A stretch of 64,000 nucleotides of DNA from an uncultured Gammaproteobacteria bacterium (GTDB lineage Bacteria; Patescibacteriota; Patescibacteriia; Magasanikbacterales; JBBTQS01): positions 246,359-310,358 of the forward strand of contig OZ246400.1 in assembly GCA_965230935.1 (NCBI GenBank), written 5' to 3'. The notes under the pieces are model-generated. The model was not told the origin of the DNA. It did not search any database and saw only the letters and a program-made list of their open reading frames with translations. The position numbers and the translations under genes were made by a program. Of this stretch, positions 926 through 61,310 are shown piece after piece (within the stretch, counting starts at the first letter, position 1; every line of letters starts with the position of its first letter).

Positions 926-953
926 TTTCATACTCTATCATATTTTTTTCATT

Positions 954-975
954 CCACTTTTCAGTGGTTTTTTAT
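954..975 (+). terminator. intrinsic terminator of fmt
   Basis: hairpin CCACT-tttc-AGTGG followed by TTTTTTAT directly after the fmt stop. Confidence 0.6.
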
Positions 976-976
976 A

Positions 977-1005
977 TTGACAAAAGGCTAATTTTTAGGT
1001 ATAGT
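977..1005 (+). promoter_or_regulatory. sigma70-like promoter of GC-rich cassette A
   Basis: TTGACA (977-982), 17-nt spacer, TATAGT (1000-1005). Confidence 0.6.
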
Positions 1006-1049
1006 ATGTGGTCGCTTTCAAAGACGTGCACAGCTTTCGTGCATCAGTT

Positions 1050-1074
1050 CCTGGGGAGTGTAACATTCCCCAGG
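1050..1074 (+). promoter_or_regulatory. 5' leader stem-loop of cassette A
   Basis: perfect 8-bp inverted repeat CCTGGGGA-N9-TCCCCAGG between promoter and RBS. Confidence 0.5.
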
Positions 1075-1111
1075 GATTGGTGTATGAGAGAATCCTTGGA
1101 AGGGGGAAGTA

Positions 1112-1516
1112 ATGAAACAGCGTCAGGAAAACATCGACAGATTGCTCGCCCGAGTGGTGCATGGGATCTACCCGCACCTCCTCATTGTATGGGTCGAGCC
1201 GAGCGAGCTCCTGGCGCACTCTCGTGCCGGATCGTTTCGCCTAGAAAGCAAAGTGCCGCTGCAATATCGCGCACTGACCGACCGCCGTACGTACGCGCTG
1301 CATTTTGCTCGACACTACCAGGTATGTGAGCAAAACACATGGCGCCCGATCAAGCTCTTTGTGACGTGCGAGGCGCGGATCAAAGATGTGAGCGATGCGA
1401 TGGCCAAACATTTGTTGCACTTGGCACAAACGGCCGCACGCACACAGCCCCGGGGCCGCCTACTGCATTTGCACGATGCCGAGCGGCGCTTTCGTCGAAT
1501 GAACACCCAACACTAA
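1112..1516 (+). CDS. GC-rich orphan protein A (134 aa, unknown function)
   Basis: ORF with strong SD GGAAGGGGGAAG 4 nt upstream of ATG; high-GC codon usage (CTG/GCC/CGC) unlike flanking genes; own promoter and terminator. Confidence 0.7.
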   Translation: MKQRQENIDRLLARVVHGIYPHLLIVWVEPSELLAHSRAGSFRLESKVPLQYRALTDRRTYALHFARHYQVCEQNTWRPIKLFVTCEARIKDVSDAMAKHLLHLAQTAARTQPRGRLLHLHDAERRFRRMNTQH

Positions 1517-1533
1517 CCAACAGAAACAACGAA

Positions 1534-1558
1534 CATCTCAGCCTAGCTGAGATGTTTT
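1534..1558 (+). terminator. intrinsic terminator of cassette A
   Basis: 9-bp stem CATCTCAGC-cta-GCTGAGATG followed by TTTT. Confidence 0.75.
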
Positions 1559-1566
1559 CAATTATC

Positions 1567-1595
1567 TTGACAAATACTATTCTTTGACCTATACT
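1567..1595 (+). promoter_or_regulatory. sigma70-like promoter of cassette B
   Basis: TTGACA (1567-1572), 17-nt spacer, TATACT (1590-1595). Confidence 0.6.
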
Positions 1596-1602
1596 CATCT
1601 CT

Positions 1603-1651
1603 TATATGCAGTGACCAGGAGACGAACCATCGCCTCCTTCTACTGCATATA
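1603..1651 (+). promoter_or_regulatory. structured 5' leader of cassette B
   Basis: 10-bp stem TATATGCAGT...ACTGCATATA enclosing a nested AGGAG...CTCCT stem; a second small CCGC/GCGG stem lies before the SD. Confidence 0.5.
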
Positions 1652-1684
1652 GACCCGCACCGCGGGAAAGGAGCACATCGGCCT

Positions 1685-3109
1685 GTGGCTGATACTCAAC
1701 AGGGTCCCCGCGCTAACGCGCACAACCAGCAGGGCTTTACCCTGCTGCAGGCGATCGCCTATCTGATCGCTCCCGCAGGTGTACTCGCACTGGTGGCAGC
1801 AGGAACAGTGTGGATTGACCTGCCGTTTGTCAGCGAACGCTTCCAGTTCAGGAGCAAGTGGGAGAACTGGATGTTGTCTCAAGTGGTGTTCGGCATGACG
1901 ATGTTGGCGGGCTTTGCACGAGTGCGGCTCCGCCGATACTCAATGATCCACATGGCGATCCTCGGACTGATCATCGTTGTGGGCGTGCGCATCGGCATAA
2001 CCGACATCATGAAGTCCGCGTACTTCGCGCCGCTGGACAATCGTGTCGATTGGCACACCCAACACATCTTCCAGGAAGAAATCAAGGCGCGGTATAGCTT
2101 TGGTTCGGCTGAGCGATCAAAGAGGAACTACCCCCGCTTCACCGAGGAGGAGTGCACGTTCGAGCAGGCCAAGATCGATGACCCGCGGTATTACGAGAGC
2201 GCCTACCGCGAACTTGAGCAGGAGCGACAAGGATACGTGGGCGCAATCAAGGAGCTTCAGGAGGATGTGCAGCGTGGCAAACAGTTGCGCCTTCACCTAC
2301 GGTTGGAATCTTTAGTCTTCCCTACCGTTGCCATCGTTCGCTTGGATCCTAACGCCCGCGTGAGCGCGCGTTACCTGGACAATGGCGTGTGCAGACTCCG
2401 TACAGATCAAGAGGTTGATAAGGTGGGGTTCAGCATGAACCTTGACCCAAAGGACGGCTGGGGTTTTCTGCTTGTGCGTATCGTACGTGCGCTGAACAAC
2501 ACACAGAGTCGAACCGGGATCAGGTGTAACATCAACCAGCTACAAGACCCGATTCGAGAAGTTGGTTGTTTCACCGCAATGACTGAGTACCTTGTCTATG
2601 GTGTGCTCGCAAGAAGGATCCTTCCCTATACCGGCCGGGAATTCGGGAACATAAAAGACTCCCTCAACTGGGACTTCCTGATCCAGGCCTGGAAGGCTGC
2701 TGATGTGATCGCCCAGGATGAGGGGCTGCTATGGGCCGTCATGACAAGCTTTGTGCAGCACCAACTCCCTCGGCTTGATGACCTGGGTCAGGGTCGACTG
2801 GCAGGCTTGCTGTGGGTTCTCTGGCACAAGAGCCACCGAAACCTGGCTGCACTTGCCACAAACACGTTCCTTGAGGCTCGCATACCCACCTCGGTTGAGG
2901 CTTGGTTCATGCGCCGATGGGCCGATGCCGGTCGGCAGGCTCCTGGGATGCGGCAGCTCTGGATCTACCGCTACTGGTTGCTTCGGGCCGGCGAGACGTT
3001 CAAGGTTCCGCAAAAGCTGCTGACGCAGTGGAACCAGGAGCTCAAGCCGGCGATCGGAGGCGCGACCACGCTCAAGCTCAAGGGGCTCTACCTGAAGGAC
3101 CTCAAGTAG
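1685..3109 (+). CDS. GC-rich membrane-anchored protein B (474 aa); paralog of protein C
   Basis: GTG start preceded by AAGGAG with slightly long spacing, so start uncertain; 3 predicted N-terminal TM helices; C-terminal EAWFMRRWADAG...LWIYRYW...GGATTLKLKGLY block shared with ORF 3368-4678. Confidence 0.7.
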   Translation: MADTQQGPRANAHNQQGFTLLQAIAYLIAPAGVLALVAAGTVWIDLPFVSERFQFRSKWENWMLSQVVFGMTMLAGFARVRLRRYSMIHMAILGLIIVVGVRIGITDIMKSAYFAPLDNRVDWHTQHIFQEEIKARYSFGSAERSKRNYPRFTEEECTFEQAKIDDPRYYESAYRELEQERQGYVGAIKELQEDVQRGKQLRLHLRLESLVFPTVAIVRLDPNARVSARYLDNGVCRLRTDQEVDKVGFSMNLDPKDGWGFLLVRIVRALNNTQSRTGIRCNINQLQDPIREVGCFTAMTEYLVYGVLARRILPYTGREFGNIKDSLNWDFLIQAWKAADVIAQDEGLLWAVMTSFVQHQLPRLDDLGQGRLAGLLWVLWHKSHRNLAALATNTFLEARIPTSVEAWFMRRWADAGRQAPGMRQLWIYRYWLLRAGETFKVPQKLLTQWNQELKPAIGGATTLKLKGLYLKDLK

Positions 3110-3145
3110 CGCTCGGAGGCTCAACAACACACAAACAACTACACG

Positions 3146-3169
3146 ATCTAGGATTTCCACATCCTAGAT
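3146..3169 (+). terminator. terminator-like hairpin after cassette B
   Basis: perfect 9-bp inverted repeat ATCTAGGAT-ttccac-ATCCTAGAT; weak T tract. Confidence 0.45.
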
Positions 3170-3199
3170 TCTGTAATTTAGCTAATTTTAGACTCATAC

Positions 3200-3228
3200 T
3201 TGACAAATTCCTCTAATTTTGGTATTGT
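3200..3228 (+). promoter_or_regulatory. sigma70-like promoter of cassette C
   Basis: TTGACA (3200-3205), 17-nt spacer, TATTGT (3223-3228); leader of about 135 nt follows. Confidence 0.55.
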
Positions 3229-3367
3229 TAGTCGTCCAAACCTGGACTCAGGATGCGAGTGTAGCAGCTCGTTTCTGTGACAGTTTTGGAACCTGGGCAC
3301 AAGAAGTGTTCATTGTTTTCCATGAGGGAATTGACAATTAGCTCAGACAGCCACGAGGAGGCAACAC

Positions 3368-4678
3368 ATGAGCGATACGACGAGCGGGGATACCCCCGAG
3401 ATGGTTACCATCCCGTGCACCGAGTGCCGTGCGGACGTGAACATCAGCAAAGAGAGAGCAGCACTGGCCGGCATGATCGGTTGCACCGACTGCGGCAAGG
3501 AGTTCATGTACTCCGGGCCCAGCAGCGAAACCGAGGACTCGGGCCCGCTGGAGCTCCCAAGCCAGGCGAAGCGGCTCAACCCGTTCGTCATCATCGGCCT
3601 CTCGACCATCCTGCTGGTGTCTCTGCTCATCTGGCACCAGTCCACGTCGGGCGACGCCGATCAGGAGGCCGAGAGTACGGCCCCGAGCGCGGTGACGGAG
3701 GACACCCCTGCGGCGGCCGAAGAGGACGAGTCGAATACCTGCACCGACGAGGATGGGTGTGGGGGTGGGAAGCGCTGCTTGAACGGCAAGTGCCAGCTGA
3801 TGGTCAACCACGACTGGGAGTCGGTCAAGGCCATCAACGGCCAAATCGCCAACCCGGTTGCCACCGCGACAGCGTCGACGCCGGTCTTCCCCAAGGACAG
3901 CGAAGACGTTCCGGAGTTCGACGGTTCGGCGACCATGTTGTTGGCCGCGGCGCTCTCCAAGCTCAACCACGACGACATGTGGCCGTATTGGTTGCTCAAG
4001 TGGGGCACGTTCGAGAAGGCCGATGATGCCGATGAGGACGCAGATGGGGTTTACATCTCCCTCGTCGATTCGGTTCTCACCGTCAAGTGGCTTCCGGAGA
4101 TGAGCAGTCCGTCGTGGAAGGGGCCGAGCGACACGCCCGAGTTCACCTACGGCGATCACCTGGTCATCGCGCTTCGGAAGATCGCCGAGGACGAGGAGCA
4201 GTTGGCCGCGCTCATGCCGTGGGCGCTGGGCTACGCCAAGGTTCACCTGCGGCCGCAGTTCTACCCCATGTACCAGGAGTGGCTGCGTCGGCTCTGGCAA
4301 GCGTCCAACACCAACCTCGCCCTGGTCAAGCATCAGGTGCAGAACGGCATCGGCGACCCGGAGGATGACGAGTACACCCGTCCGGGCGACGTGCTGTACG
4401 ACAACGACCTGAAGTTGGAGGGGTGGTTCATGCGCCGCTGGAGCAACGCCGGGGGCGGCAAGGCAGGGAGCGATCGGATCCTGCTGTACCGCTACTGGAT
4501 CGTCAAGGTCATGCAGATGCTCGAGGGCGGCTGCAGTCCGGCCGGGGACACACCCGCGTGTTCCGAGGAGTTGCTGGGATGGGCCAGCGCCGTTCAAGGT
4601 TCGTTCCAGAACGGTGAGGGCGCCACCCTGAAGCACAAGGGGACCTACTTCAGCCAGATCGACACGTTCTGGCCCTGA
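3368..4678 (+). CDS. GC-rich protein C (436 aa): N-terminal Cys4 zinc ribbon, single TM, acidic linker, C-terminal domain paralogous to protein B
   Basis: SD GAGGAGG 6 nt upstream of ATG; CTEC...CTDCG zinc-ribbon-like motif then TM helix FVIIGLSTILLVSLLIW; C-terminal EGWFMRRWSNAG...LLYRYW...GEGATLKHKGTY. Confidence 0.75.
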   Translation: MSDTTSGDTPEMVTIPCTECRADVNISKERAALAGMIGCTDCGKEFMYSGPSSETEDSGPLELPSQAKRLNPFVIIGLSTILLVSLLIWHQSTSGDADQEAESTAPSAVTEDTPAAAEEDESNTCTDEDGCGGGKRCLNGKCQLMVNHDWESVKAINGQIANPVATATASTPVFPKDSEDVPEFDGSATMLLAAALSKLNHDDMWPYWLLKWGTFEKADDADEDADGVYISLVDSVLTVKWLPEMSSPSWKGPSDTPEFTYGDHLVIALRKIAEDEEQLAALMPWALGYAKVHLRPQFYPMYQEWLRRLWQASNTNLALVKHQVQNGIGDPEDDEYTRPGDVLYDNDLKLEGWFMRRWSNAGGGKAGSDRILLYRYWIVKVMQMLEGGCSPAGDTPACSEELLGWASAVQGSFQNGEGATLKHKGTYFSQIDTFWP

Positions 4679-4730
4679 GGTCGGCTCCGACGGCTCCTGA
4701 GCACACACCACAACACAACAACTACTTGCA

Positions 4731-4759
4731 GGCCCGCAGCGCGTACAGCGATGCGGGCC
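4731..4759 (+). terminator. intrinsic terminator of cassette C
   Basis: 8-bp stem GGCCCGCA-N13-TGCGGGCC followed by a T-rich tract. Confidence 0.65.
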
Positions 4760-4794
4760 TCAGTAATTTTAGCTAGTAATCGCCTACCATTCTT

Positions 4795-8052: not shown

Positions 8053-8164
8053 AGCAATACTCTTATTGTACGAAAATGAATAAGAAATAGCAATAAAAAG
8101 CAAAATCGTCCAGAGTTCTCTGCACGAAGACGCGTTGTGTATTTTGCTGTGACCCGTGGGCTGC

Positions 8165-8596
8165 TCATGGCGCAGCGACAGCTGTTGTGTGAACCTCAAG
8201 ACTCCAGCTCCGCCAGCTCAAGCCAAGACTTGTCAACGTCTCGACCTCCGAGGGTAGATACTGGAACCACTGACACTTCCGGTCGCACTTGACCACACTC
8301 AACAATAGCTGGTATCCACGAACTGTGGCACGCATGTCGCTCATGAGCGGCACGCGAACCCCGAAGTCCGCCTGACACCCGGCCAACGCAGGCAGGCCGG
8401 CATGACCTTCATCGACCAGCATCATGTCGTCGTCCCCCACAACGCCGGCGCCAAAGAGGGCGACGACGAGACTCCATGCTTGCGATCGATCGATCCCGCT
8501 CCCAAAGACTACTCCCCACTTTCCGGCGTGGCGAGATTGGTGCACAAAGGCGCCTTGGGTCATGTCCCCAACAGCGGCCTCTCCTCGTTGCGGCAT
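8165..8596 (-). CDS. GC-rich orphan protein D (143 aa, unknown function)
   Basis: ATG preceded by AGGAGG (8603-8608 on minus strand); GC-rich codons; sits between Wzx gene and the S9 operon terminator. Confidence 0.65.
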   Translation of the reverse strand: MPQRGEAAVGDMTQGAFVHQSRHAGKWGVVFGSGIDRSQAWSLVVALFGAGVVGDDDMMLVDEGHAGLPALAGCQADFGVRVPLMSDMRATVRGYQLLLSVVKCDRKCQWFQYLPSEVETLTSLGLSWRSWSLEVHTTAVAAP

Positions 8597-8633
8597 ACAT
8601 ACCTCCTACCGCGGTTGTTGAACATATATTCAG

Positions 8634-8662
8634 CATACTCAGATTACTACACCTTTGTCAAC
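8634..8662 (-). promoter_or_regulatory. promoter of cassette D
   Basis: TTGACA at 8662-8657 on the minus strand, immediately after the S9 terminator; -10 hexamer ambiguous (GAGTAT / TATGCT). Confidence 0.45.
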
Positions 8663-9871: not shown

Positions 9872-10648
9872 CTATGATACTTGTTCCTCAATGACTCCCT
9901 CCTCCACTGCTTCTGCTACTGGCTCTTCTGCACCTTCATCTGTCAGCTCAGCAGCTACTGATCCACCATCACTGATAACTTGTAAATGACTGGACAAAAT
10001 AGCAGTTGACTGCTCCATTGCCTCTTTCGGTGTAAGCGTGCCATCAGTTTGGATCTTCAACGTCAACTTTTCGTAGTTGGTAATATCACCCACACGGGTG
10101 TTTTCAACGCTATATCCCATGTCAACAACTGGAGTAAAAATGGAATCAATCGCAATCATGCCAAGCTCAAGATTTTCTTCTTCGCGTTGTTCGACGGTAA
10201 CATATCCACGACCGCGCTTCACTACAATATCCATTTCAAGCTCAGTACCAGCATCCGTAATCTCTGCCAAATGGAGATCAGAATTCACCACTTCAACATC
10301 AGCGTTTGCTTCTATGTCTGCAGCAGTCACTGCTCCGGCGCCTTTTTTCTTCAGATGAAGTTTTACTTCACCATCAGCATGTACGCGAACACGTAATTTT
10401 TTTAAGTTAAGCAATACCTGCACTACATCCTCAGCAACACCATCAATACCATCAAATTCATGAGAAACACCTTTAATCTTTACTGCGGTTGCAGCAGCAC
10501 CTGGCAATGATGAAAGTAACACACGGCGATACATATTCCCGAGCGTGGTTCCATATCCGTGATAACACGGAGTAATAATAACCTCAGCGGTGTTATCGGC
10601 ATCAAGGTCAGTATAGGTAACTGAATTTGGTAAAAGTAATTCCTCCAT
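9872..10648 (-). CDS. rpoA: DNA-directed RNA polymerase alpha subunit, lacking the C-terminal domain
   Basis: alpha NTD motifs (ITPCYHGYGTTLGNMYRRVLLSSLPG); only 258 aa, ends in an acidic tail, no alpha-CTD. Confidence 0.85.
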   Translation of the reverse strand: MEELLLPNSVTYTDLDADNTAEVIITPCYHGYGTTLGNMYRRVLLSSLPGAAATAVKIKGVSHEFDGIDGVAEDVVQVLLNLKKLRVRVHADGEVKLHLKKKGAGAVTAADIEANADVEVVNSDLHLAEITDAGTELEMDIVVKRGRGYVTVEQREEENLELGMIAIDSIFTPVVDMGYSVENTRVGDITNYEKLTLKIQTDGTLTPKEAMEQSTAILSSHLQVISDGGSVAAELTDEGAEEPVAEAVEEGVIEEQVS

Positions 10649-12259: not shown

Positions 12260-12475
12260 TCAAAATCGGTAGGTAATACGCCCTTTGGTTAAATCATAGG
12301 GCGTCATTTCTACTTTTACACGGTCACCTGCCGTAAGGCGTATACGAAATCTCCGCATCTTTCCTGAAAGATGAGCGATGATTTCATGCGCATTGTCAAG
12401 TTGGACGCGAAAGGTCCCACCAGGTAGTGATTCTTCGATCACTCCTTTAAATTCAACGACGTCTTTTTTTGTCAT
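12260..12475 (-). CDS. infA: translation initiation factor IF-1
   Basis: 71 aa S1-like fold, [19 protein letters not shown]. Confidence 0.95.
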
Positions 12476-31764: not shown

Positions 31765-31793
31765 TTGACAAAAGGCCAAAAATGTGCTATGAT
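31765..31793 (+). promoter_or_regulatory. sigma70-like promoter of cassette E
   Basis: TTGACA (31765-31770), 17-nt spacer, TATGAT (31788-31793); preceded by a CTAATTTTAGCTA motif. Confidence 0.6.
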
Positions 31794-31839
31794 AGACACA
31801 CGTTTTTTGACATTCTCACCTTTTGTCCCGGGAGGACCC

Positions 31840-32130
31840 ATGAACCAGAACTCGAACCCCATCACCTTCGCCGACTTCTTCAGTGCCTTCGCGCTCCTGC
31901 TGCTCGCGGTGCTCGTCGTCACGATCCCGGTGTGGGCCCCGAGCCTCTTCGACGAGGCGGCCTTCCCGGTCAACCTGAGCCAGTTCGCTCAGGCCACGAT
32001 CATCGGGTGCCTCTTCGGCGCCGGCCTGGCCACGCTGATGGTCCGCGCGATGTGCGCGACCACCCACCTGGCGCCGGCCTACGCCACGGAGTGCGACGAC
32101 GACTACGTCGACCTCGACTTCGACGGCTGA
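31840..32130 (+). CDS. GC-rich small membrane protein E (96 aa)
   Basis: SD GGGAGGA 3 nt upstream of ATG; two predicted TM segments; acidic C-terminus ECDDDYVDLDFDG; the ORF-track start at 31765 would begin inside the promoter. Confidence 0.65.
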   Translation: MNQNSNPITFADFFSAFALLLLAVLVVTIPVWAPSLFDEAAFPVNLSQFAQATIIGCLFGAGLATLMVRAMCATTHLAPAYATECDDDYVDLDFDG

Positions 32131-32172
32131 TCACCACACAGCGCGGGCAGCGCTAAACCCACCTGCCCACCG

Positions 32173-32214
32173 AAAGCCCCGACGCGGATTTCTAACACGC
32201 GACGGGGCTTTTCG
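32173..32214 (+). terminator. intrinsic terminator of cassette E
   Basis: AAAGCCCCGACGCG...CGCGACGGGGCTTT stem followed by TTTCG. Confidence 0.65.
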
Positions 32215-34998: not shown

Positions 34999-35027
34999 TT
35001 GCTGTCGATATGAAAAAATGGTATCAT
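34999..35027 (+). promoter_or_regulatory. promoter-like element upstream of GC-rich mini-ORF
   Basis: TTGCTG-17 nt-TATCAT ending 28 nt before the ATG. Confidence 0.4.
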
Positions 35028-35055
35028 AATGGCACAACCTCTCCTGGAGTACACC

Positions 35056-35184
35056 ATGCTCGACAACCATGAGCCCCAGCGGGCTGTTGAGCGTGGATCA
35101 GGTCTGCCGTTCGTGGCCACTCTCTTTTTGACTCTGACCCTCCTGCTCGGTGCACTCCTGAATCTGGCCTCGTACCTTGGCTGA
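35056..35184 (+). CDS. GC-rich mini-ORF (42 aa, single TM)
   Basis: hand-translated MLDNHEPQRAVERGSGLPFVATLFLTLTLLLGALLNLASYLG; GC-rich codons; below the ORF-track cut-off. Confidence 0.45.
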   Translation: MLDNHEPQRAVERGSGLPFVATLFLTLTLLLGALLNLASYLG

Positions 35185-35227
35185 CCTTCTCTCCCCGCCG
35201 GCCGCCTGCTCCAAGGACCCCCACGTT

Positions 35228-35252
35228 CCCGCGATTTCGAACGATCTCGCGG
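35228..35252 (+). terminator. hairpin after mini-ORF
   Basis: CCCGCGA-N11-TCGCGGG inverted repeat; no clear T tract. Confidence 0.35.
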
Positions 35253-35413
35253 GTCCGACTCTCTTAAGTCCAATTTTCATGATTTTTATCTCACTTGAAC
35301 ATCAATAAGAGGACTTGTAAGGCCGATATTGTGCCCGAGATCTTAGGGCGCGGTACTGGCCTTTTTCATTTATGTAAATTCTGATAAAGTTTGGTTACCT
35401 AATTGACATTGCT

Positions 35414-41581: not shown

Positions 41582-41618
41582 AGGTAAAAAGAAAATTATT
41601 ATAAGAGAAGAATAGTAG

Positions 41619-46345: not shown

Positions 46346-46361
46346 TGCGGTGCAAAAAGAA

Positions 46362-46394
46362 GAAGCGCTCCATCAGGGCGCTTTCTTGTTGTTT
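46362..46394 (+). terminator. intrinsic terminator of cca
   Basis: GAAGCGC-loop-GCGCTTT stem followed by CTTGTTGTTT. Confidence 0.55.
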
Positions 46395-46452
46395 GATGTA
46401 GTATTTTGTTGACGTCTAACTTCCGCTGAGGCGCGTCGCGATCCCCTTCTTC

Positions 46453-47667
46453 CTAAGCAGACGGGCGTTTCAGCCAGGTCCAAGGAACGGTAAATCGGCG
46501 ACTCTCACGCCAGATATACCCTTCCTCTTGTGCTCGGGAGATATATGCACGAATCGAATCAGTTGAAATTCCACCACCAAATGATTCTGGGGTCAGATGA
46601 TGATGATAGAAGTCACGGCCGCCGGTGGAATCCCAAAGATGAACCAGTCGGTCAGACCAAGGCATCTCGAGCCGGGTTACCTGTGGTGGAGATGGGGCCT
46701 TCAACCAGTAGCACGCATTCGGATGGTTCTCAGCGCACCGGATGTACCCTTCCTTGCGTGCACGGCCCAGGTACGATTTAAGAGTGCCTTTAGAAACGCC
46801 ACCACCGAACGATTCGGCGCTGATCTCATCTCGAGAAAAGTCACTTCCACCGGTAGACTTCCAAAAGTAAAAAAGCCGCAATTCCCAAGGAATTTTTTGC
46901 TTATTCACTCTACTGCGATGTCGATTTGGTTCTTCACCACGCACACTACTATCAGCAGTTGCACCAACGTTCGTAGGCCTAGATGAAGGTTTCTGACCGT
47001 ACGGGTGTTCGCCTATCAAGGCAAAACCAGAGACCGAGATGCTATACCAATCACCCTCAAGACAAGCGCCGGTCAAGCGGTCTTCGTCGCAGCGAGACAA
47101 CAACATGTGATCCAACAGCATATCCATTACATCACCGATCTGCTCAAAGCCCAGTTTACCGAGCTTATCATCAGTAGCGGTTCTACGAATTGCCTGCCGA
47201 ACCAAGTCTTCCGGGAACGTCGGAATCTCGTTTAGATGGTATCCTGTCTGCTCGAAGATGTGGTGCAACACACGACGTAGTGCTTCATCAATCTGCAGCG
47301 AAGTACTCACATCGCCATCATAGCAAACACCAGGACGGTACGGTTCCCCTTCCCGGAACCACCCAACGTGACTCCTCCCGATCATGTCAAAAGCCGATGC
47401 CGTCATCTGAAGACGACGGTTCCTTCTTCCCTTGTACCCCACACTACCACGTGTGAGCAAGAAACGCTCTTCCATCACCGCAACCAACTGGGCACGACTC
47501 TTCACACCTAACTGTCTTTGCAGTTGTGTAGGCAGCGCTTCGCGAATCCATTTCTTAAGCTGCGCTTGTGTGAATGTGCGACGAACGCCTCTCCGGTATC
47601 CTGTTTTGCGAAAAAGCGCTTTGACCACTTCACGAAGAAGGTCGTACTGCGCCTGATTTCTCTGCAT
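46453..47667 (-). CDS. GC-rich protein F (about 405 aa) with internal tandem roughly 65-aa repeat
   Basis: start placed at MQRNQAQ (ATG 47665-47667) because of the strong SD AGGGGGGAG; repeats WELRLFYFWKSTGGSDF...ESFGGGVS...EGYI and WSDRLVHLWDSTGGRDF...ESFGGGIS...EGYI. Confidence 0.7.
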   Translation of the reverse strand: MQRNQAQYDLLREVVKALFRKTGYRRGVRRTFTQAQLKKWIREALPTQLQRQLGVKSRAQLVAVMEERFLLTRGSVGYKGRRNRRLQMTASAFDMIGRSHVGWFREGEPYRPGVCYDGDVSTSLQIDEALRRVLHHIFEQTGYHLNEIPTFPEDLVRQAIRRTATDDKLGKLGFEQIGDVMDMLLDHMLLSRCDEDRLTGACLEGDWYSISVSGFALIGEHPYGQKPSSRPTNVGATADSSVRGEEPNRHRSRVNKQKIPWELRLFYFWKSTGGSDFSRDEISAESFGGGVSKGTLKSYLGRARKEGYIRCAENHPNACYWLKAPSPPQVTRLEMPWSDRLVHLWDSTGGRDFYHHHLTPESFGGGISTDSIRAYISRAQEEGYIWRESRRFTVPWTWLKRPSA

Positions 47668-47809
47668 TTTGATCTCCCCCCTAAGGGTCTTGTGTTGATG
47701 AAATTGACCAATTAGCTGAGTATAGTTAATCATTTTATATTATTTTGTCAAGAATAAATTAAGACAAATATAAAATTTACATATCCTTTTACTCCGTGTA
47801 CACTAAATT

Positions 47810-53256: not shown

Positions 53257-53285
53257 TTGACAGAAACTCAATTACTTACTACAAT
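53257..53285 (+). promoter_or_regulatory. sigma70-like promoter of cassette G
   Basis: TTGACA (53257-53262), 17-nt spacer, TACAAT (53280-53285). Confidence 0.6.
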
Positions 53286-53343
53286 ACCTTTCCATTGAAG
53301 GAAACAACACCAACCTCTAGTAGCGAAAGCTAAGGAGTCTGAC

Positions 53344-54021
53344 GTGCACACCAATCCGATCCTAACCGCTGCCTTGCTGATCGTGGCATTGACGTTGGCC
53401 GGGTGCGGCGGCCCGGAGCAGCTCGTCAACACCGGGCAGACGCATTTGATCCGCACCGGGACGGAGGACGCCGAACATCATCCCGCCTGCATCGACCTGC
53501 CGTTGCAAGTCAAGCAGGGTGAGCACATCACGCTGAAGCACGTCCCCGAGACGTCACAACAGCACGCGGTGTGCTATGTCGGCGATTGGGATGAGTTGTT
53601 TGGACGAAGCACCAGTGTGCTGATTAATCCTGCGCGGTATTGGCCGACCATCATTGACCTGAACCTGTGGTGGGACAAGGTGATGAAGGGTCAGAGCAAG
53701 CCGCAGCAGGGCTCTACCGAGAACCTCACCTACTGGTACGTCTTCGACAAGGGAGCCGTGTACAACGGCAGCATTCTCACGATCTGTACCAAGGACGTTC
53801 GAGAAAACCTCAAAAAAGGCGGCCACGCGTCGGTAGGATGGGGAGTCCAAATGACAACTGGAATGTCGGAGTTTTTCCTGCATGTTGTGAAGACGCTCAT
53901 CGAAAGTGGAACACTCGGATCTGATGCCACCATCGACCCGCTGATGCCGATCCCAGCGGCACTGGATGGCCTTGGTAAGGATCCGCGATTCTGCTCGCAG
54001 GTCTTGATCAAGCACAACTAA
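53344..54021 (+). CDS. GC-rich predicted lipoprotein G (225 aa, unknown function)
   Basis: GTG start after SD AAGGAG; signal peptide with lipobox LTLAGC; GC-rich codons. Confidence 0.7.
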   Translation: MHTNPILTAALLIVALTLAGCGGPEQLVNTGQTHLIRTGTEDAEHHPACIDLPLQVKQGEHITLKHVPETSQQHAVCYVGDWDELFGRSTSVLINPARYWPTIIDLNLWWDKVMKGQSKPQQGSTENLTYWYVFDKGAVYNGSILTICTKDVRENLKKGGHASVGWGVQMTTGMSEFFLHVVKTLIESGTLGSDATIDPLMPIPAALDGLGKDPRFCSQVLIKHN

Positions 54022-54037
54022 CAACTTACAACCACAA

Positions 54038-54071
54038 CGACCTGCACGTAATGCGGGTCGTTTGTATTTTT
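54038..54071 (+). terminator. intrinsic terminator of cassette G
   Basis: CGACCTGC-acgtaat-GCGGGTCG stem (one G-U pair) followed by TTTGTATTTTT. Confidence 0.65.
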
Positions 54072-54088
54072 AATTGTAATGGCTATTC

Positions 54089-56284: not shown

Positions 56285-57676
56285 ATGCACGGATCTTCTG
56301 CAACAATTAAAAAAGTCTTTCTACTCTTGGGTGATGTAATTTTGCTCTATGGCGCCTTAGCACTGACCTTACGCCTGCGTTATGGCGCAGCTGACTTTGT
56401 CACCCAATGGGACGCGCACTTGCTACCATTTAGCATGATCTTTTTGCTGTGGATTGTAATCTTCTACATTAGTAGTTTGTACGACATCCAAAAGGCAAAA
56501 AATAATGTTCATTTTTATCGTCACTTTTTTGAAGCACTGATTGCTGCCGGCGCTATTGCCATTGGCTTTTTCTACGTAATCCCCTTCTTTTATATTGCGC
56601 CAAAAACAAACCTGGTGATTGTACTCGGTATTTTTGCATTTTTGTTTACCCTGTGGCGCATGGCATACAATCATTGGATTGCCCCACGATTACTTCGTCG
56701 TCGGTTGTTGTTTGTTGGTCGCACGGAAGAAGCTGAGGAATTGATTACTGCTTTTCAGGCTGATTCACAACTCGGGTATTTGCCGGTAGCATTGGTTGAT
56801 TTAACAGAACACGAAGGCAAACCAATTAAAAACGTTGAAATTTATAAATCACTCAAACATATCCGCGCCATTGTTACGGCATATGAGATCGATACGGTTG
56901 TGCTGGGAATTGATATTCACGAACAATCAGAACTTACTCAAGAATTGTATGAGTTAATCTTTTGGGACTTGGACATTGTGAACGTCAGCACATTATACGA
57001 GCATATCACAGGCCGTGTTGCACTCTCATCACTCTCTGAATCATGGTTTTTAGAAAATCTCAACTCCACACATACTCGACTGTATGACATTTTCCGCTGG
57101 GTCGTTGATTATGTTGTTGCTGCGGTCTTGATTTTACTTACCGCACTCTTAACGCCAATTATCGCACTACTCATTAAAAGTACCAGTCCGGGACCATTGT
57201 TTTATTCACAAAAACGAATTGGGAAAAACGGTAAGCCGTTTACGTTGTATAAATTTAGAACCATGAAAGCACTTTCAAAAGACGGTTCAGCTGAAGTAGA
57301 TGGTGCGCAAATGACCCAAGAAAAAGACGATCGCATCACACGCTTTGGTAACTTCTTGCGCAAGACCCGTATTGATGAGTTTCCTCAATCACTCAATATT
57401 TTAAAGGGTGAGATGAGTTTGATTGGACCACGACCAGAGCGCCAAGCATTTGTTGATAAAGTTGAGGGAACTATGCCATTTTTCACGGTTCGTAATATTG
57501 TTCGTCCTGGTATGACCGGCTGGGCACAAATTAATTATCCGTATGCGAAAAGTACGCGTGAGCTCCTGATCAAACTGCAGTACGATTTATACTATATTAA
57601 AAATCGCTCGATCATGATTGATATTGCGATCTTCTTGAAGACCATTAATGTGTTGGTGCGACGTAAAGGGATTTAG
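56285..57676 (+). CDS. polyprenyl glycosylphosphotransferase (WbaP/EpsB-like sugar transferase)
   Basis: 4-5 N-terminal TM helices; C-terminal bacterial sugar transferase domain (PGPLFYSQKRIGKNGKPF...KFRTM). Confidence 0.85.
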   Translation: MHGSSATIKKVFLLLGDVILLYGALALTLRLRYGAADFVTQWDAHLLPFSMIFLLWIVIFYISSLYDIQKAKNNVHFYRHFFEALIAAGAIAIGFFYVIPFFYIAPKTNLVIVLGIFAFLFTLWRMAYNHWIAPRLLRRRLLFVGRTEEAEELITAFQADSQLGYLPVALVDLTEHEGKPIKNVEIYKSLKHIRAIVTAYEIDTVVLGIDIHEQSELTQELYELIFWDLDIVNVSTLYEHITGRVALSSLSESWFLENLNSTHTRLYDIFRWVVDYVVAAVLILLTALLTPIIALLIKSTSPGPLFYSQKRIGKNGKPFTLYKFRTMKALSKDGSAEVDGAQMTQEKDDRITRFGNFLRKTRIDEFPQSLNILKGEMSLIGPRPERQAFVDKVEGTMPFFTVRNIVRPGMTGWAQINYPYAKSTRELLIKLQYDLYYIKNRSIMIDIAIFLKTINVLVRRKGI

Positions 57677-57700
57677 ACCACACCACATATCGTCATCATG

Positions 57701-57726
57701 CACACCACAACTGTGGTGTGTTTTGG
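57701..57726 (+). terminator. intrinsic terminator of the sugar transferase gene
   Basis: 9-bp stem CACACCACA-ac-TGTGGTGTG followed by TTTTGG. Confidence 0.7.
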
Positions 57727-57737
57727 TATGGCGCACA

Positions 57738-57766
57738 TTGACAATCTTCAAAAAATCTGCTATACC
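57738..57766 (+). promoter_or_regulatory. sigma70-like promoter of cassette H
   Basis: TTGACA (57738-57743), 17-nt spacer, TATACC. Confidence 0.55.
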
Positions 57767-57810
57767 ATGATCAGCTAAAACTCTGAAAGCCGAAAGGCAC
57801 CTGGAGGGCA

Positions 57811-58410
57811 ATGCCCACCTTTGAGGACTTGAAGCGCTGTCTTGTAATGGGAATGCGCGAGATTAAGCGACGTCATGAAGACGAGATGTATGAGCTGAGT
57901 GAGAAGCTGAACGACTTTTTGTACAGCATCCACGTCGCTCAATGGCAAAAGCATGATGACGCCGCCCCACTTCCCGAGGACTTCATCACCAAGACGCCCC
58001 CCGGAACACAGCTCACCTCCAAGGCGAGTGGCGTGTTTACCCGGATGCGGGCGTTTTTGGCGGAAAAAGACCTGGTGGCTGTCTACGACATCTATGTGAC
58101 ACCGGACAGTGACGGTGGCGCCACCTACACGCTCACGCGCAACGGCTCGCGACTCGAGCAAAAAAGGATCGCTGAGCTGGGCGACCCGGCGATCTTCAGT
58201 GAGATTGCCCTGGTCTGGCTGCCAAGGCAAAAACTCCACTCGAAAATCGGGCTTGACCTTGAGATCAAGGCGATCCGCGAAACCGCCATTGCGCAAGGCA
58301 TCTCGCCGGATGATACGGAGGCGTTCCAGGAGGCCACCGGCAAACACCTCGCTCTGGCAGCGGTAGGCCACCTGCTCAGAAGTGGAAAACTGCGAGACTC
58401 ATCGGACTAA
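57811..58410 (+). CDS. GC-rich orphan protein H (199 aa, unknown function)
   Basis: SD GGAGGG 3 nt upstream of ATG; GC-rich; own terminator. Confidence 0.7.
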   Translation: MPTFEDLKRCLVMGMREIKRRHEDEMYELSEKLNDFLYSIHVAQWQKHDDAAPLPEDFITKTPPGTQLTSKASGVFTRMRAFLAEKDLVAVYDIYVTPDSDGGATYTLTRNGSRLEQKRIAELGDPAIFSEIALVWLPRQKLHSKIGLDLEIKAIRETAIAQGISPDDTEAFQEATGKHLALAAVGHLLRSGKLRDSSD

Positions 58411-58426
58411 CAACTCACACAACAAC

Positions 58427-58463
58427 AAACCCACCAAGCGAACGCGAGGTGGGTTTGGGATTT
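58427..58463. terminator. hairpin terminator after cassette H (possibly bidirectional)
   Basis: 9-bp stem AAACCCACC-N12-GGTGGGTTT followed by GGGATTTT; the convergent minus-strand gene ends about 25 nt downstream. Confidence 0.7.
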
Positions 58464-58487
58464 TAAATTATTTGTAAACCTGTTTCC

Positions 58488-59339
58488 CTACTCAATAATT
58501 CCTGATTTAAACTTTTCAAGCTCTTGCTCAACGGTTGGCACTTCTTCGAGTGATTCACCCCGATCCTCAAGTATTTTGAGAAGACGCTCGTACTCTTCAA
58601 ATGCAGCAGTGTTTTGCGGTTCTAGTGCAGAAATCTTGGCGCGATCAGTCAGTGCTGCACGAATGTCATCAATAGATTCGTTGTACACTGCTCGAGACTT
58701 GAGTATTTCGTCAACACCAACCACAATACGATTTAACGCACGCGAATAAATTTCCAGGACCACACTTGGATCTGATTTCAAATTATACTGATGCACTTCT
58801 GCCAGCTTGACATAGTTAGCCGCAAGTCCGGGTGAAAGAGTGATCGCGCGCTCGTAAAACTCGATCGTTCGGTCATAATTGTTAAGCTCACGATGAATTC
58901 CGGCAGCGTTTTGATACAACAATCCATTATTCTCACCGAATAATTCGATCGCGTCATCATAAATACTAGCAGCATGTTGCAAACCGTACTCCAATCCATG
59001 AACTAACCCAACAGACTTCCAATAGCGTGCTGCTTCAATATGAGGGATCATGTCGTCTTTGGCATCAGTTCCAAACTTGGCTTTCCATTCATCTGCTTGA
59101 CGAATCAGATTAGCAACAGAATCCTGATCTTCTTGGGAGAGCTGCGCAACTTCTTTTTCAAATTTCGCATAGGCATACGACTCACTTTGGTAATACCATC
59201 CACCGGCTGCGAGTGCAATGACCAAAATGATAACTAACGTAAACACAAACCGCAATGAACGTGCCTGCTTTTTTTCGTGGGTACTTGGTTGCGTTGATGC
59301 TGGTTCTTGAGTGGTGTTTTCCATATGATTAGGCAACAT
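58488..59339 (-). CDS. membrane-anchored TPR repeat protein
   Basis: N-terminal TM then TPR-like helices (YYERAITLSPGLAANYVKLAEVH). Confidence 0.6.
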   Translation of the reverse strand: MLPNHMENTTQEPASTQPSTHEKKQARSLRFVFTLVIILVIALAAGGWYYQSESYAYAKFEKEVAQLSQEDQDSVANLIRQADEWKAKFGTDAKDDMIPHIEAARYWKSVGLVHGLEYGLQHAASIYDDAIELFGENNGLLYQNAAGIHRELNNYDRTIEFYERAITLSPGLAANYVKLAEVHQYNLKSDPSVVLEIYSRALNRIVVGVDEILKSRAVYNESIDDIRAALTDRAKISALEPQNTAAFEEYERLLKILEDRGESLEEVPTVEQELEKFKSGIIE

Positions 59340-60234
59340 TATAAAATTCTTTTACCTGACGAATTCCCTCTTCAATGTCCACTGACGGTGTCCAATTAAG
59401 AAGCTCTTTGGCAAGTGAGATGTCTGCTAAGGTGTCATGCGGTTCGAGTCGCGGTGGAATATATTCTGTCTCACCCCCAAACATAGCCGCAATATCATTG
59501 ATACTTTGATTGGCTCCTGCGCCAATATTGATTATCTCACCTTGGCCGGCCTTTTCACTGTTCATCGCTGCCAAGTTAGCACGCACCACATCGTCAACAT
59601 GGGTAAAGTCGCGGGTCTGGGTTCCATCACCAGTGATGGTAAGCTTTTTGCCTTCGCGAAGTTGGCGCACAAACACAGACATGACCGTGACGTATGCACC
59701 TTTCTCAGCCATACGTGGACCATACACATTAAAGTACCGAAGTGAAACGGTTTCTAAATTGTAGATCAAGGCAAAAAGACGGGCATAATGTTCGCCAACA
59801 TGTTTTTGCAATCCATACGGACTCATAGGGTTTGGAAACATATCCTCGCGTAGTGGCATTGGACTACCATCACCATACGCAGAGCTTGACGCACTATAGA
59901 CCACACGCTTCACCCCGGCATCGCGAGCTGCCACAAACACGTGCAGAGTGGCGTCGATATTATGCCCATGCGTTTCGATTGGATTTTCAATGGAGGTTTG
60001 TACCCGTGGGAGTGCGGCGCAATGGAATACACCATCCACGCCTTTAAACAGCGGACCAATCTTGTCGAGGTCTCGCAAATCTACATCATGATGAATAACA
60101 CCATCACGCAAATTTTCTTTTGCGCCGGTCAAAAAATTGTCGATCACATGGACGGTGTGTCCGTCTTTAAGGAGTGCATCGCAGATATGGGAGCCAATGA
60201 ATCCGGCTCCGCCAGTAACGAGGTAGGTCGCCAT
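59329..60234 (-). CDS. NAD-dependent epimerase/dehydratase (UDP-sugar 4-epimerase-like)
   Basis: YLVTGGAGFIGSH; SDR YxxxK; 301 aa. Confidence 0.8.
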   Translation of the reverse strand: MATYLVTGGAGFIGSHICDALLKDGHTVHVIDNFLTGAKENLRDGVIHHDVDLRDLDKIGPLFKGVDGVFHCAALPRVQTSIENPIETHGHNIDATLHVFVAARDAGVKRVVYSASSSAYGDGSPMPLREDMFPNPMSPYGLQKHVGEHYARLFALIYNLETVSLRYFNVYGPRMAEKGAYVTVMSVFVRQLREGKKLTITGDGTQTRDFTHVDDVVRANLAAMNSEKAGQGEIINIGAGANQSINDIAAMFGGETEYIPPRLEPHDTLADISLAKELLNWTPSVDIEEGIRQVKEFYNVA

Positions 60235-60323
60235 AACAGGAGTTTAAAGCTAAATATAGTGAAATAATACCCTATTTTTGCCTAAAGTGCAACTGGTTTT
60301 TTACCGTCAATAATCGGCTAAAA

Positions 60324-60352
60324 CTTGACAAATTTTCGTATTCATGGTAGGC
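60324..60352 (+). promoter_or_regulatory. sigma70-like promoter of cassette I
   Basis: TTGACA (60324-60329), 17-nt spacer, TAGGCT (weak -10). Confidence 0.45.
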
Positions 60353-60373
60353 TTACGCCACGTTCTTTGATTT

Positions 60374-60389
60374 TTGGCCCTCTAGGGCC
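60374..60389 (+). promoter_or_regulatory. perfect palindrome in the cassette I leader (candidate operator or RNA hairpin)
   Basis: TGGCCCT-ct-AGGGCCA between the promoter and the SD. Confidence 0.45.
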
Positions 60390-60413
60390 ACCACTTTTTG
60401 CCTTGGAGGCGCT

Positions 60414-61214
60414 ATGAAGCACCCGAGACAGTTGAGCAGGTTCGCTCTTTGGCTGAACATTGCCAGGCAGGCGTACCAGCGTTGGAATCACCGCCGTGCG
60501 GTGGTTCCAGCCCAGATGGGCTACCCGGACTCGTACCAGGAGCCCAAGGCCATCGAGGATCAGCTCCACATCCTGCGCCAGTACTTCCCCGAGCTGGGCG
60601 TTGCCCGGTTGGCGGACGCGCGCCAGGTGCTCCCTGAGGGCGCCGAGGGGTGGTTTGCCATCCCGAAGTGGCAGGCGCTGGGCGACACCTACTGTGAGGC
60701 GTTGCACCGCGTGTTTGCGGCGCTGCGCCAGAGCCGCTATGTGGAGGATCTGCTCAACCAGTTTGGGCCGGTCACGGATCTGCAGCTGCAGACCACCGAG
60801 CACACCCGCGACGCGATGAACTACATCGCCGCGGAGCAGGACCGCCGGACGTTCGAGGGGAACATCCTCATGATCCCCTGCCAGTTCGGCGCGAACCACG
60901 CGGGCGAGTCGGATCTTCGCGTGCGCGCCACGTTGCGCCACGACGAGTTCGCGCTCTCCACCTTCGCGGTGGCGTGCATGGTGTTGACCCACCCGGATCG
61001 GTTTGTCAGCGATGGCACCCTGGGTGTGCACTGCACCGGTGACGGCTTCAGCCAGATCACGCAGGACCACCGCGAGTTCCACGGCTTCTGCGACACGCCC
61101 TGCTTCTTCTTCGACCGCGGGAGCGACGGGCACGACAAGCTGTGGCTCAGCAGCGACCTGGTGCGGATCCCGCGATACCACACCGGGGCGGCCACCGGGT
61201 TCATAGTCGAGTAA
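60414..61214 (+). CDS. GC-rich orphan protein I (266 aa, unknown function)
   Basis: SD GGAGG 5 nt upstream of ATG; Cys/His-rich C-terminal half (HCTGDGF...HGFCDTPCFFFD). Confidence 0.7.
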   Translation: MKHPRQLSRFALWLNIARQAYQRWNHRRAVVPAQMGYPDSYQEPKAIEDQLHILRQYFPELGVARLADARQVLPEGAEGWFAIPKWQALGDTYCEALHRVFAALRQSRYVEDLLNQFGPVTDLQLQTTEHTRDAMNYIAAEQDRRTFEGNILMIPCQFGANHAGESDLRVRATLRHDEFALSTFAVACMVLTHPDRFVSDGTLGVHCTGDGFSQITQDHREFHGFCDTPCFFFDRGSDGHDKLWLSSDLVRIPRYHTGAATGFIVE

Positions 61215-61271
61215 CGCGTCGAGGCGCGGCCGACAACCCACCAGACATAAACCAATTCAAACAACCACTTC

Positions 61272-61310
61272 CCCGCCAAGGCGCACGCTGAGGCGGGTTA
61301 GTGTTTTTTC
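61272..61310 (+). terminator. hairpin after cassette I
   Basis: CCCGCC-N15-GGCGGG followed by TTAGTGTTTTTTC. Confidence 0.45.

Follow-up and report, generated by a model that had tools for sequence, protein, structure and literature searches.

How ten GC-rich single-gene units come to lie among the housekeeping genes of a low-GC bacterial chromosome, and why they keep their composition there, is the question raised by a stretch of 64,000 nucleotides (nt) of contig OZ246400.1 (positions 246,359 to 310,358; referred to as the window). The units are designated cassettes A to J in the order of their positions. We give about an even chance to the explanation that they are accessory cassettes resembling phage morons, derived from a gene pool of candidate phyla radiation (CPR) bacteria and phages, and that their GC-richness is actively maintained. 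The evidence for maintenance comes from the families of J and of B and C, the relatives of which are also GC-rich in low-GC replicons.

The ten monocistronic units total 8,991 bp, which is 14% of the window, and stand out in a 300-bp GC profile as discrete blocks of 0.55-0.68 over a background of 0.38-0.48. The GC content of their open reading frames (ORFs), the frames of which are set by the promoter, the Shine-Dalgarno (SD) site and the terminator, is 0.51-0.67, compared with about 0.44 in the host. The GC content at third codon positions (GC3) is 0.50 for G, 0.65-0.74 for A, B, D, F, H and I, and 0.87-0.97 for C, E and J, compared with 0.28-0.47 (mean 0.38) for 31 host genes. The codons CTG, GCC, CGC, GGC, ATC and AAG, and also GAC, are preferred in the cassettes, and TTG, GCA, CGT, GGT, ATT and AAA in the host. 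An earlier note on this DNA, which was made from the sequence, had reported GC islands dominated by CTG, GCC, CGC, GAC and GGC codons; the islands are found where it placed them by sliding-window GC and GC3, distinct from the flanking host genes, and the codon counts agree with it. A GC3 scan does not reveal further cassettes in the window. Four more (K to N) with the same layout are located within 6 kb beyond its end in the reverse orientation (L086, 4900-8200).

The edges of the blocks are sharp. At maximum-likelihood change-points the GC content rises from 0.26-0.46 to 0.57-0.68 within a few bases. In most cassettes the block starts close to the predicted transcription start, 13-104 nt before the start codon; the exceptions are I and, outside the window, M, in which it starts inside the ORF. 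It often ends past the terminator stem, and the promoter DNA mostly has a GC content of 0.26-0.36. These edges, which are near the transcription start and the terminator and not exactly at the codons, fit codon-level and regional causes alike. The features of the ten cassettes are as follows (aa, amino acids; TM, transmembrane; promoters are given as -35 hexamer, spacer length and -10 hexamer).

A, 977..1562, + strand: promoter TTGACA-17-TATAGT at 977-1005; 100-nt leader with a long hairpin; ORF 1112-1516 (134 aa, GC3 0.67); CA-rich tail; hairpin at about 1532-1556, then a T-run.
B, 1567..3180, + strand: promoter TTGACA-17-TATACT at 1567-1595; 83-nt structured leader; ORF 1685-3109 (474 aa, GTG start, two TM segments, GC3 0.70); tail CAACAACACACAAACAAC; hairpin 3145-3170.
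C, 3200..4772, + strand: promoter TTGACA-17-TATTGT at 3200-3228; 133-nt leader; ORF 3368-4678 (436 aa, zinc-ribbon-like N-terminus, one TM segment, Cys-rich stretch, GC3 0.87); tail CACACACCACAACACAAC; hairpin 4727-4762, common with the convergent GT2 gene.
D, 8092..8661, - strand: promoter TTGACA-18-TATGCT at 8661-8632; 29-nt leader; AGGAGG SD site; ORF 8596-8165 (143 aa, GC3 0.66); hairpin 8133-8100, then a T-run; unchanged in two other samples.
E, 31765..32213, + strand: promoter TTGACA-17-TATGAT at 31765-31793; 40-nt leader; ORF 31840-32130 (96 aa, two TM segments, GC3 0.97); hairpin at about 32176-32209, then TTTT, common with the convergent hpf.
F, 34999..35270, + strand: weaker promoter TTGCTG-17-TATCAT; ORF 35056-35184 (42 aa, one TM segment, GC3 0.65); hairpin at about 35225-35256; the least certain of the ten.
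G, 46355..47751, - strand: TTGACA at 47751-47746; SD site GGGGGGAG; ORF 47667-46453 (404 aa, duplicated repeat like a winged helix-turn-helix (wHTH), GC3 0.50); CA-rich tail; hairpin 46387-46360, common with the convergent cca.
H, 53257..54072, + strand: promoter TTGACA-17-TACAAT at 53257-53285; 52-nt leader; ORF 53344-54021 (225 aa, lipoprotein-type signal LTLAGC, GC3 0.74); tail CAACTTACAACCACAAC; hairpin at about 54038-54060, then a T-run, common with the convergent S8 peptidase gene.
I, 57738..58465, + strand: promoter TTGACA-17-TATACC at 57738-57766; 38-nt leader; ORF 57811-58410 (199 aa, GC3 0.70); tail CACACAACAACAAACCCA; hairpin 58426-58457 (-19.4 kcal/mol).
J, 60325..61310, + strand: promoter TTGACA-17-TAGGCT at 60325-60353; 54-nt leader with a hairpin; ORF 60414-61214 (266 aa, GC3 0.89); hairpin 61266-61303, then a T-run.

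A strict TTGACA, 17 nt, TAnnnT promoter precedes six cassettes (A, B, C, E, H and J). The promoters of the others are variants: the spacer of D is 18 nt long, the -10 hexamer of I is TATACC and that of G is TAACTA (or TATACT after a 21-nt spacer), and the -35 hexamer of F is TTGCTG. Near-consensus -35 and -10 sites are present at nine to ten of the ten cassettes. Perfect TTGACA-N16-18-TAnnnT sites occur 11 times in the window, compared with 1.9 expected, and seven of these 11 are cassette promoters. The promoter has a TTGACAAA extension in seven of the ten cassettes, and the motif GGCTAATTTTAG is not enriched near the promoters (10 matches, compared with 5.2 +/- 2 expected). The promoter of infA, which encodes the initiation factor IF-1 (12260-12475), at 12490-12518 (- strand) is a perfect TTGACA-17-TATACT without the TTGACAAA extension. 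By this example, the consensus of the cassette promoters is also that of the strong promoters of the host itself. An SD site with a GGAG core is located 3-10 nt from the start codon in all ten cassettes, and a hairpin, followed in most by a T-run, is located downstream of all ten. The leaders differ: A, B, J and I have strong hairpins, and D, E and F have no significant structure. The 100-nt leader of A (1012-1111) folds into one long hairpin of -51.6 kcal/mol, with z = -8 relative to shuffled sequences, and z is near -4 for B and J. The leader hairpin of A may stabilise the 5' end or act in regulation. A search of the leaders against Rfam at the gathering threshold does not detect an RNA family.

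The earlier note had assigned a TTGACA-like hexamer, exactly 17 bp and TAnnnT to nine of the ten cassettes, with the -10 of D ambiguous and the promoter of F unclear; the strict pattern is correct for six, and D, I, G and F deviate from it. It had also assigned a GGAGG-type SD site to all ten, which agrees with our result, and a hairpin to nine, one fewer than are found. The uniform architecture that it described holds for the layout of promoter, SD site and hairpin, and breaks down in the heterogeneous leaders. G is only weakly GC-rich.

Two regularities are absent from that note. One is a C/A-rich, G-poor tract between the stop codon and the hairpin in most cassettes, for example CAACAACACACAAACAAC, which is cassette-specific. 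When 3' ends are anchored on the stop codon, the best A+C count of an 18-mer after it reaches 15.6 for 14 cassettes (A-J and K-N), compared with 12.5 for the 3' ends of 20 host genes (p = 2e-4). The host sugar transferase gene (56285-57676), directly upstream of the promoter of cassette I, has a CA-rich tail and a hairpin at 57677-57735. The other is a strand bias: eight of the ten cassettes, compared with seven of 50 host genes, are on the + strand (Fisher p = 9e-5). Across the window the cumulative GC skew declines without a reversal. From the strand bias and the falling skew together, the cassettes probably run against the direction of replication and converge with the host operons. A terminator common to the cassette and a convergent host gene is found in six (C, E, G, H, I and J). 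The 3' ends of M and N have in common a module of 43 nt, which consists of the CA-rich tail and the hairpin and has 91% identity; this is the sole nucleotide similarity between any two cassettes; neither a nucleotide repeat shared among the window cassettes nor a second copy of any 3' end is found. A dispersed, similarly regulated gene set, another proposal of the earlier note, is compatible with the TTGACAAA-type promoters and CA-rich tails, which do not prove it.

J is the most informative cassette. Its AlphaFold2 model (pLDDT 73, the predicted local distance difference test score) has a fold like those of C-type lectins and the formylglycine-generating enzyme, which is the type seen in the variable proteins of diversity-generating retroelements (DGRs); a search of the J-family profile against the PDB sequences gives spurious TPR matches only. 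The family has the conserved motifs LPxGAEGWFAIPKWQ, DILVVPAQFGLRHRG, LLTHP and CxGDEF, and no Pfam model. The six protein matches of J are distant. One of the six (L003) adjoins genes for bAvd and a reverse transcriptase (RT), and the pair of variable repeat (VR) and template repeat (TR) is given by 2606-2737 / 3138-3269. The 3' 132 nt of the gene are 84% identical to the template, and of the 21 differences 20 affect adenines of the TR, so that L003 has every mark of a textbook DGR. The J-family profile also detects four IMG/VR viral contigs (L091-L094), in all four of which the relative is a DGR target and a GC island. These five phage-like contigs carry complete DGRs (target, TR, bAvd and RT), in which nearly every change from TR to VR affects an adenine, most often as A-to-G, and the target gene is the main, usually the sole, GC island of the contig. 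The C-terminus of J aligns with the variable repeat of its DGR-targeted relatives. These alignments indicate that J belongs to a family diversified by phage DGRs, of which the 3' end is the variable repeat of phage and CPR DGRs.

The J family has at least 563 metagenomic relatives at the DNA level, and the loci analysed are the best 80 (L097-L176), with the background GC taken from flanks of up to 6 kb. For the 69 best loci with measurable flanks, the mean gene GC is 0.58 and the mean GC3 is 0.72, over backgrounds with a mean of 0.405 and a range of 0.28-0.61. The gene exceeds its background by more than 0.08 in 63 of the 69 loci, and by less than 0.03 in none. An adenine-specific TR is found in 19 of 47 J loci with at least 3 kb of flank. 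When J pairs from low-GC replicons with 44-81% protein identity are compared, every divergence bin has a mean GC3 of 0.67-0.80. Copies in genomes with a GC content of about 0.6 are few; they form a clade of their own and are not the nearest relatives of the other copies. A near-consensus sigma70 promoter of its own precedes 49 of 63 J members (78%), compared with 11 of 315 control regions (p = 6e-38). Because high GC3 persists across divergence far beyond synonymous saturation and the promoters are private, the predicted strong promoter and the GC-rich body are a conserved syndrome of the J family, not the transient signature of an import. The sharp compositional edges, which the earlier note had taken as a sign of recent arrival, do not have this meaning for the J family. 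The deviation is stable over at least 69 loci with backgrounds of 28-61% GC and across deep divergence, which suggests that the composition is held against the mutational bias of the genome.

B and C are diverged tandem paralogs with 32% identity and have a C-terminal domain of 83 aa in common (E = 1e-9). An exhaustive HMMER search of 1.84 billion representatives detects seven weak relatives of B, all of which are anchored at the N-terminus and contain the EGWFMRRWINAGRG...LYRFW domain. On a CPR-like contig with 43% GC (L179), the homolog is located between hicAB and the NAD kinase gene as a monocistronic island with a GC content of 0.64 and a GC3 of 0.90, and has a TTGACT-17-TAAAAT promoter, a long leader, an SD site and a terminator. 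Another contig (L177) carries two tandem B/C paralogs (GC3 0.63) and a third GC-rich gene, separated by AT-rich spacers, and resembles the A-B-C block. The third gene of L177 (3337-3972, GC3 0.83) encodes a Pro/Gln-rich, acidic-tailed membrane protein, so that GC-rich genes are clustered in another metagenome as well. By these predictions the B/C family repeats the pattern of the J family: it is GC-rich and self-promoted in other CPR genomes. The CA-rich tail is not seen after the J or B/C relatives of L003, L177 and L179. Because it is absent there, the non-coding framework of the cassettes seems to have been shaped in this genome, while their ORFs are part of wider families.

None of the cassette proteins has a match in Pfam, PHROGs, NCBIfam or PADLOC, and they are mutually unrelated except for the B/C pair. 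The claim that no recognisable family is represented is right with respect to these collections, and fails for J, which belongs to a C-type-lectin family of DGR targets, and for B and C with their common domain. TM segments are predicted for B, C, E and F, a lipoprotein signal for H, and an internal wHTH-like duplication for G. No relative of C or of G is found among 5.8 billion proteins. Viral scans with the single proteins C and G and with the B/C profile give nothing, and J, H and I have no match by tblastn in 50,697 GenBank phage records. The public gene calls on the identical ENA contigs are on the antisense strand in C, E, F and J, against the sense ORFs that are supported by promoter and SD site:

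3338-4711, - strand: public ORF antisense to C.
31816-32067, - strand: public ORF antisense to E.
35098-35280, - strand: public ORF antisense to F.
60342-61241, - strand: public ORF antisense to J.

The C, E and J proteins are absent from a collection of 15 billion proteins. It appears that a gene caller trained on low GC systematically mis-strands GC-rich islands. A word-indexed protein search found six J relatives, compared with the at least 563 found at the DNA level. A large share of the accessory proteins of CPR bacteria and phages may be missing from protein databases.

The explanation that we favour, moron-like cassettes of maintained composition, runs as follows. Each cassette would be an insertion where two housekeeping transcription units meet, in most cases with the opposite orientation, and would be expressed through a near-consensus sigma70 promoter of its own and a strong SD site of the GGAG type. 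The CA-rich tail and the hairpin would insulate the neighbours from strong, mostly antiparallel transcription. The cargo would be unrelated, lineage-restricted proteins, many of which are predicted to be membrane-anchored, lipoproteins or small membrane proteins (B, C, E, F and H). The products probably act at the cell envelope, where they may serve in attachment to a host cell, or in phage exclusion and recognition. The source would be a pool of accessory genes that CPR bacteria and their phages exchange, and the cassettes are presumed to be mobile. The high GC content of the two traceable families would be a conserved trait that travels with the gene and its private promoter; the relatives of J bear this out, and those of B and C have the same syndrome. 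Because the trait is conserved with the gene, it is probably actively maintained, and this reading would extend to the eight cassettes without relatives. The remaining candidates for the cause are transcript-level selection, GC-biased gene conversion in an exchanged pool, and import from an unsampled reservoir. The leading guess is that selection on the transcript, for example for mRNA stability in an environment of AU-targeting decay, would hold the GC content. Translational optimisation is unlikely, because the ribosomal protein genes of the host do not prefer GC-ending codons (rpsI GC3 0.28). Adenine mutagenesis by a DGR does not account for the GC content of the whole gene: the cassettes are depleted of T3 as well as of A3 and have about as much C3 as G3, and cassette C has a positive AT skew.

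Several observations weigh against this explanation. The codon usage and the raised R/(K+R) ratio (0.69, compared with 0.45 in host proteins) resemble those of ordinary high-GC bacterial genes, and the wide spread of GC3 (0.50-0.97) also fits staggered imports with amelioration. Some chromosomal copies of the J family have native GC, so that maintenance is not universal; GC3 is below 0.6 in none of 17 TR-linked copies and in six of 24 unlinked ones, and the means do not differ significantly (p = 0.18). Because the 80 J loci are the ones closest to J, their selection may have introduced a bias. Relatives are traceable for two of the roughly nine unrelated families, and eight cassettes have none. 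Phage structural genes, a repressor, an integrase, a transposase and an RT are not found in the window. The absence of an integrase, a transposase and direct repeats is as the earlier note had it.

A stronger version of the favoured explanation is that the cassettes represent a 'GC-locked' class of self-promoted genes common to CPR bacteria and phages, for which a dedicated force holds the coding GC near 0.6 in any replicon. We put this forward tentatively, as possible and somewhat doubtful. The candidate forces would be transcript-level selection (for example to avoid AU-directed RNA decay or toxins), biased conversion specific to the gene pool, and a link to retroelement-mediated turnover. 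If this class is real, compositional deviation would mark a mobile functional class, not a recent foreign origin, and this genome would be an extreme accumulator. The density of islands is high here: extra islands cover 2.4% of the flanks around other J-family genes, compared with 14% of the window, and islands are rare in the Patescibacteria loci retrieved with SecA.

Recent, repeated transfer from one or several high-GC bacteria, for example from an actinobacterial host of an epibiotic CPR bacterium by natural competence, seems unlikely to us. In this case the ORFs would acquire, or land behind, local expression signals, and the spread of GC3 would reflect different donors and amelioration. 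The classical high-GC codon usage, the GC3 heterogeneity and the sharp edges of the blocks are as this explanation predicts, as are the raised R/(K+R) and a frequency of the residues F, Y, M, I, N and K (FYMINK) lower than that in host proteins. E is located within, and interrupts, the conserved gene string murB-hpf-secA, the order of which is kept in other Patescibacteria, and many high-GC ORFans are poorly sampled. However, searches of 5.8 and 1.84 billion proteins and of metagenome DNA detect no relative in a high-GC genome, except for the separate high-GC clade of J. The J and B/C relatives are GC-rich in low-GC CPR-like genomes and phages beyond synonymous saturation, and AT-rich flanks with shared TTGACAAA promoters and CA-rich tails are not expected of independent imports. 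The frequency of the residues G, A, R and P (GARP) is 0.26-0.31 in the cassettes, a modest shift that leaves it below the 0.35 of reference genes with GC3 >0.8; calibrated on amino-acid composition and on GC1 and GC2 against 580 reference ORFs, the cassettes are only about one standard deviation off the trend for their GC3. The acquisition from a high-GC donor proposed by the earlier note is therefore plausible as acquisition, and the actinobacterial donor is unsupported where it can be examined, since the relatives traced for J and for B/C belong to CPR-like genomes of low GC and to phages.

We regard it as similarly improbable that the cassettes are long-resident, vertically inherited genes of a CPR clade, similarly regulated, the GC content of which is kept in situ by transcript selection or by GC-biased gene conversion with strain exchange. 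The common promoter flavour and the CA-rich tails, which the J and B/C relatives elsewhere lack, are readily explained in this way, and so are the 3' module of M and N, the persistence of high GC in the diverged tandem paralogs B and C, and the rough coincidence of the GC block with the transcribed unit. The cassettes are also identical across three samples of one project, and no mobility genes are found. In contrast, the nearest relatives of J, with about 40% identity, come from various unrelated genomes and phages, in which their positions are not homologous, an island density such as that of the window is not seen in the nearest Patescibacteria loci or around other J genes, and GC-ending codons are not the preference of the host in its ribosomal protein genes.

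It is very unlikely that J, and possibly others, are active remote targets of a DGR elsewhere in the 0.93 Mb genome, with the cassette architecture serving hypermutation. The alignment of the C-terminus of J with the variable repeat of its relatives would fit this possibility, and the assembly of another sample breaks at 61013, about 45 nt before the VR-equivalent region, as VR heterogeneity would cause; GC-dependent coverage loss explains the assembly breaks equally well. A TR-like copy, an RT and an Avd gene are not found in the window or within 10 kb on either side, and the symmetrical depletion of A3 and T3 argues against adenine mutagenesis as the source of whole-gene GC.

An artefact (chimeric assembly, contamination, or the engineered or synthetic insertions considered in the earlier note) can practically be dismissed, even though the layout of consensus promoter, leader, SD site, ORF, spacer and terminator looks designed and several assemblies break inside cassettes, because the junctions recur with 99.95-100% identity in other assemblies (two runs assembled with MEGAHIT at ENA, a third run in Logan, and the NCBI contig of 931 kb), and the same syndrome is found for two families in unrelated environmental metagenomes. 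ENA metagenome contigs of ERR2281800 are 100% identical to the window, and contigs of ERR2281801 (Logan assembly) and ERR2281805 match it at 99.95-100% and span host-cassette junctions, so that the same junctions are present in separate assemblies of three sequencing runs by two assemblers. Several cassette proteins are also encoded on the NCBI contig of 931,061 bp. The units are real, natural and single-gene, and have the architecture described above.

The neighbours of the cassettes are core genes: fmt, ribosomal protein genes, rpoA, infA, alaS, mnmA, secADF, murBC and genes for other Mur ligases, the gene for penicillin-binding protein 2, glyA, folD, tsaE, znuABC, cca and envelope glycosyltransferase genes. 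SecA has its best match at only 54-62%, to metagenome-assembled genomes of Patescibacteria among 185,579 species representatives. Judged from its genes, the host, an uncultured, ultra-small bacterium, is a deep-branching lineage of Patescibacteria (CPR) without a close reference, and the classic empty-site comparison is impossible because there is no close relative.

Among known systems, phage morons are the closest in layout. Morons ('more DNA') of HK97/HK022-type phages are single ORFs with their own promoter and terminator and deviant GC, located between genes (Cumby et al. 2012, PMC3594210). The cassettes likewise have a single ORF, a predicted promoter and terminator of their own, and deviant GC, leave their neighbours undisrupted, and often carry small membrane proteins or lipoproteins as cargo. 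They differ in that their neighbours are housekeeping genes of a bacterial chromosome and not genes of a phage or prophage, so that they lack the defining feature of a moron. They are GC-richer and not merely atypical, occupy 14% of 64 kb and have a CA-rich tail, and in the families of J and B/C the GC deviation is kept over long divergence and is no marker of recent transfer. Relative to syntenic genomes, E may be extra DNA: it is located in the conserved murB-hpf-secA string, the hpf-secA gap of which is about 170 nt in another genome (L076). By this analogy the cassettes would work like morons in their layout, and they are not morons in the strict sense. The moron concept is thereby extended from phages to a streamlined bacterial chromosome.

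The variable proteins of DGRs with a C-type-lectin fold include Mtd of Bordetella phage, TvpA of Treponema, and CPR and archaeal targets. J resembles them in its predicted fold and through its family, in which a 3' VR of about 130 nt is paired with an adenine-mutagenised TR adjoining bAvd and RT on phage or CPR contigs. It differs in lacking a TR, an RT and Avd within the range given above, and the other nine cassettes have no link to DGRs. Islets and ORFans of horizontal gene transfer are similar in their deviant composition and codon usage, lineage-restricted proteins and intergenic sites. In contrast, the cassettes have no tRNA, integrase or direct-repeat border (the single tRNA of the window, at 41618-41690 by Rfam at the gathering threshold, adjoins no cassette), no donor-clade homologs are found, each cassette is separately promoted and terminated, and two families show no amelioration. 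Integron cassettes are typically promoterless and arrayed at attI. They are also compact single-ORF accessory units of unassigned function, but the units described here are dispersed, have their own promoters, and lack intI and an attC-like shared 3' repeat, except for the module of M and N. The literature, with subscription journals outside the coverage, contains no description that we could find of GC-rich cassettes in CPR genomes, of GC-rich DGR targets, or, in the DGR surveys, of the whole-gene GC-richness and private promoter of the J family. The results break a standard inference, since a sharp GC island here does not equate to recent transfer from a GC-rich donor. The cassettes also offer candidates for the genes by which an unculturable, probably episymbiotic bacterium attaches to its host or interacts with phages, with predicted envelope proteins and a DGR-type lectin-fold binder under private promoters.

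Independent assemblies of this sample series end at window positions 1114, 3830, 4182 and 61013, all at the edge of or inside GC-rich cassettes: at the start codon of A (1114), twice inside C (3830 and 4182) and inside J (61013). These breaks could be caused by GC-dependent coverage loss or by strain-level heterogeneity. In ERR2281805, rpoA is called as two ORFs of 193 and 62 aa (L096 96-872, window about 10069-10481) on a contig with two single-nucleotide differences from the window, which may be a strain variant or an assembly error. The region at 17982-25635 (- strand) encodes a 1,129-aa protein without a Pfam domain, then a coupling-protein-like ATPase of the type-IV-secretion type, with TrwB/TraG/DUF87 domains and a treble-clef zinc finger, and then a 513-aa protein that is annotated as DUF8128 elsewhere. 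Together these genes may form a module by which the CPR cell translocates DNA or protein.

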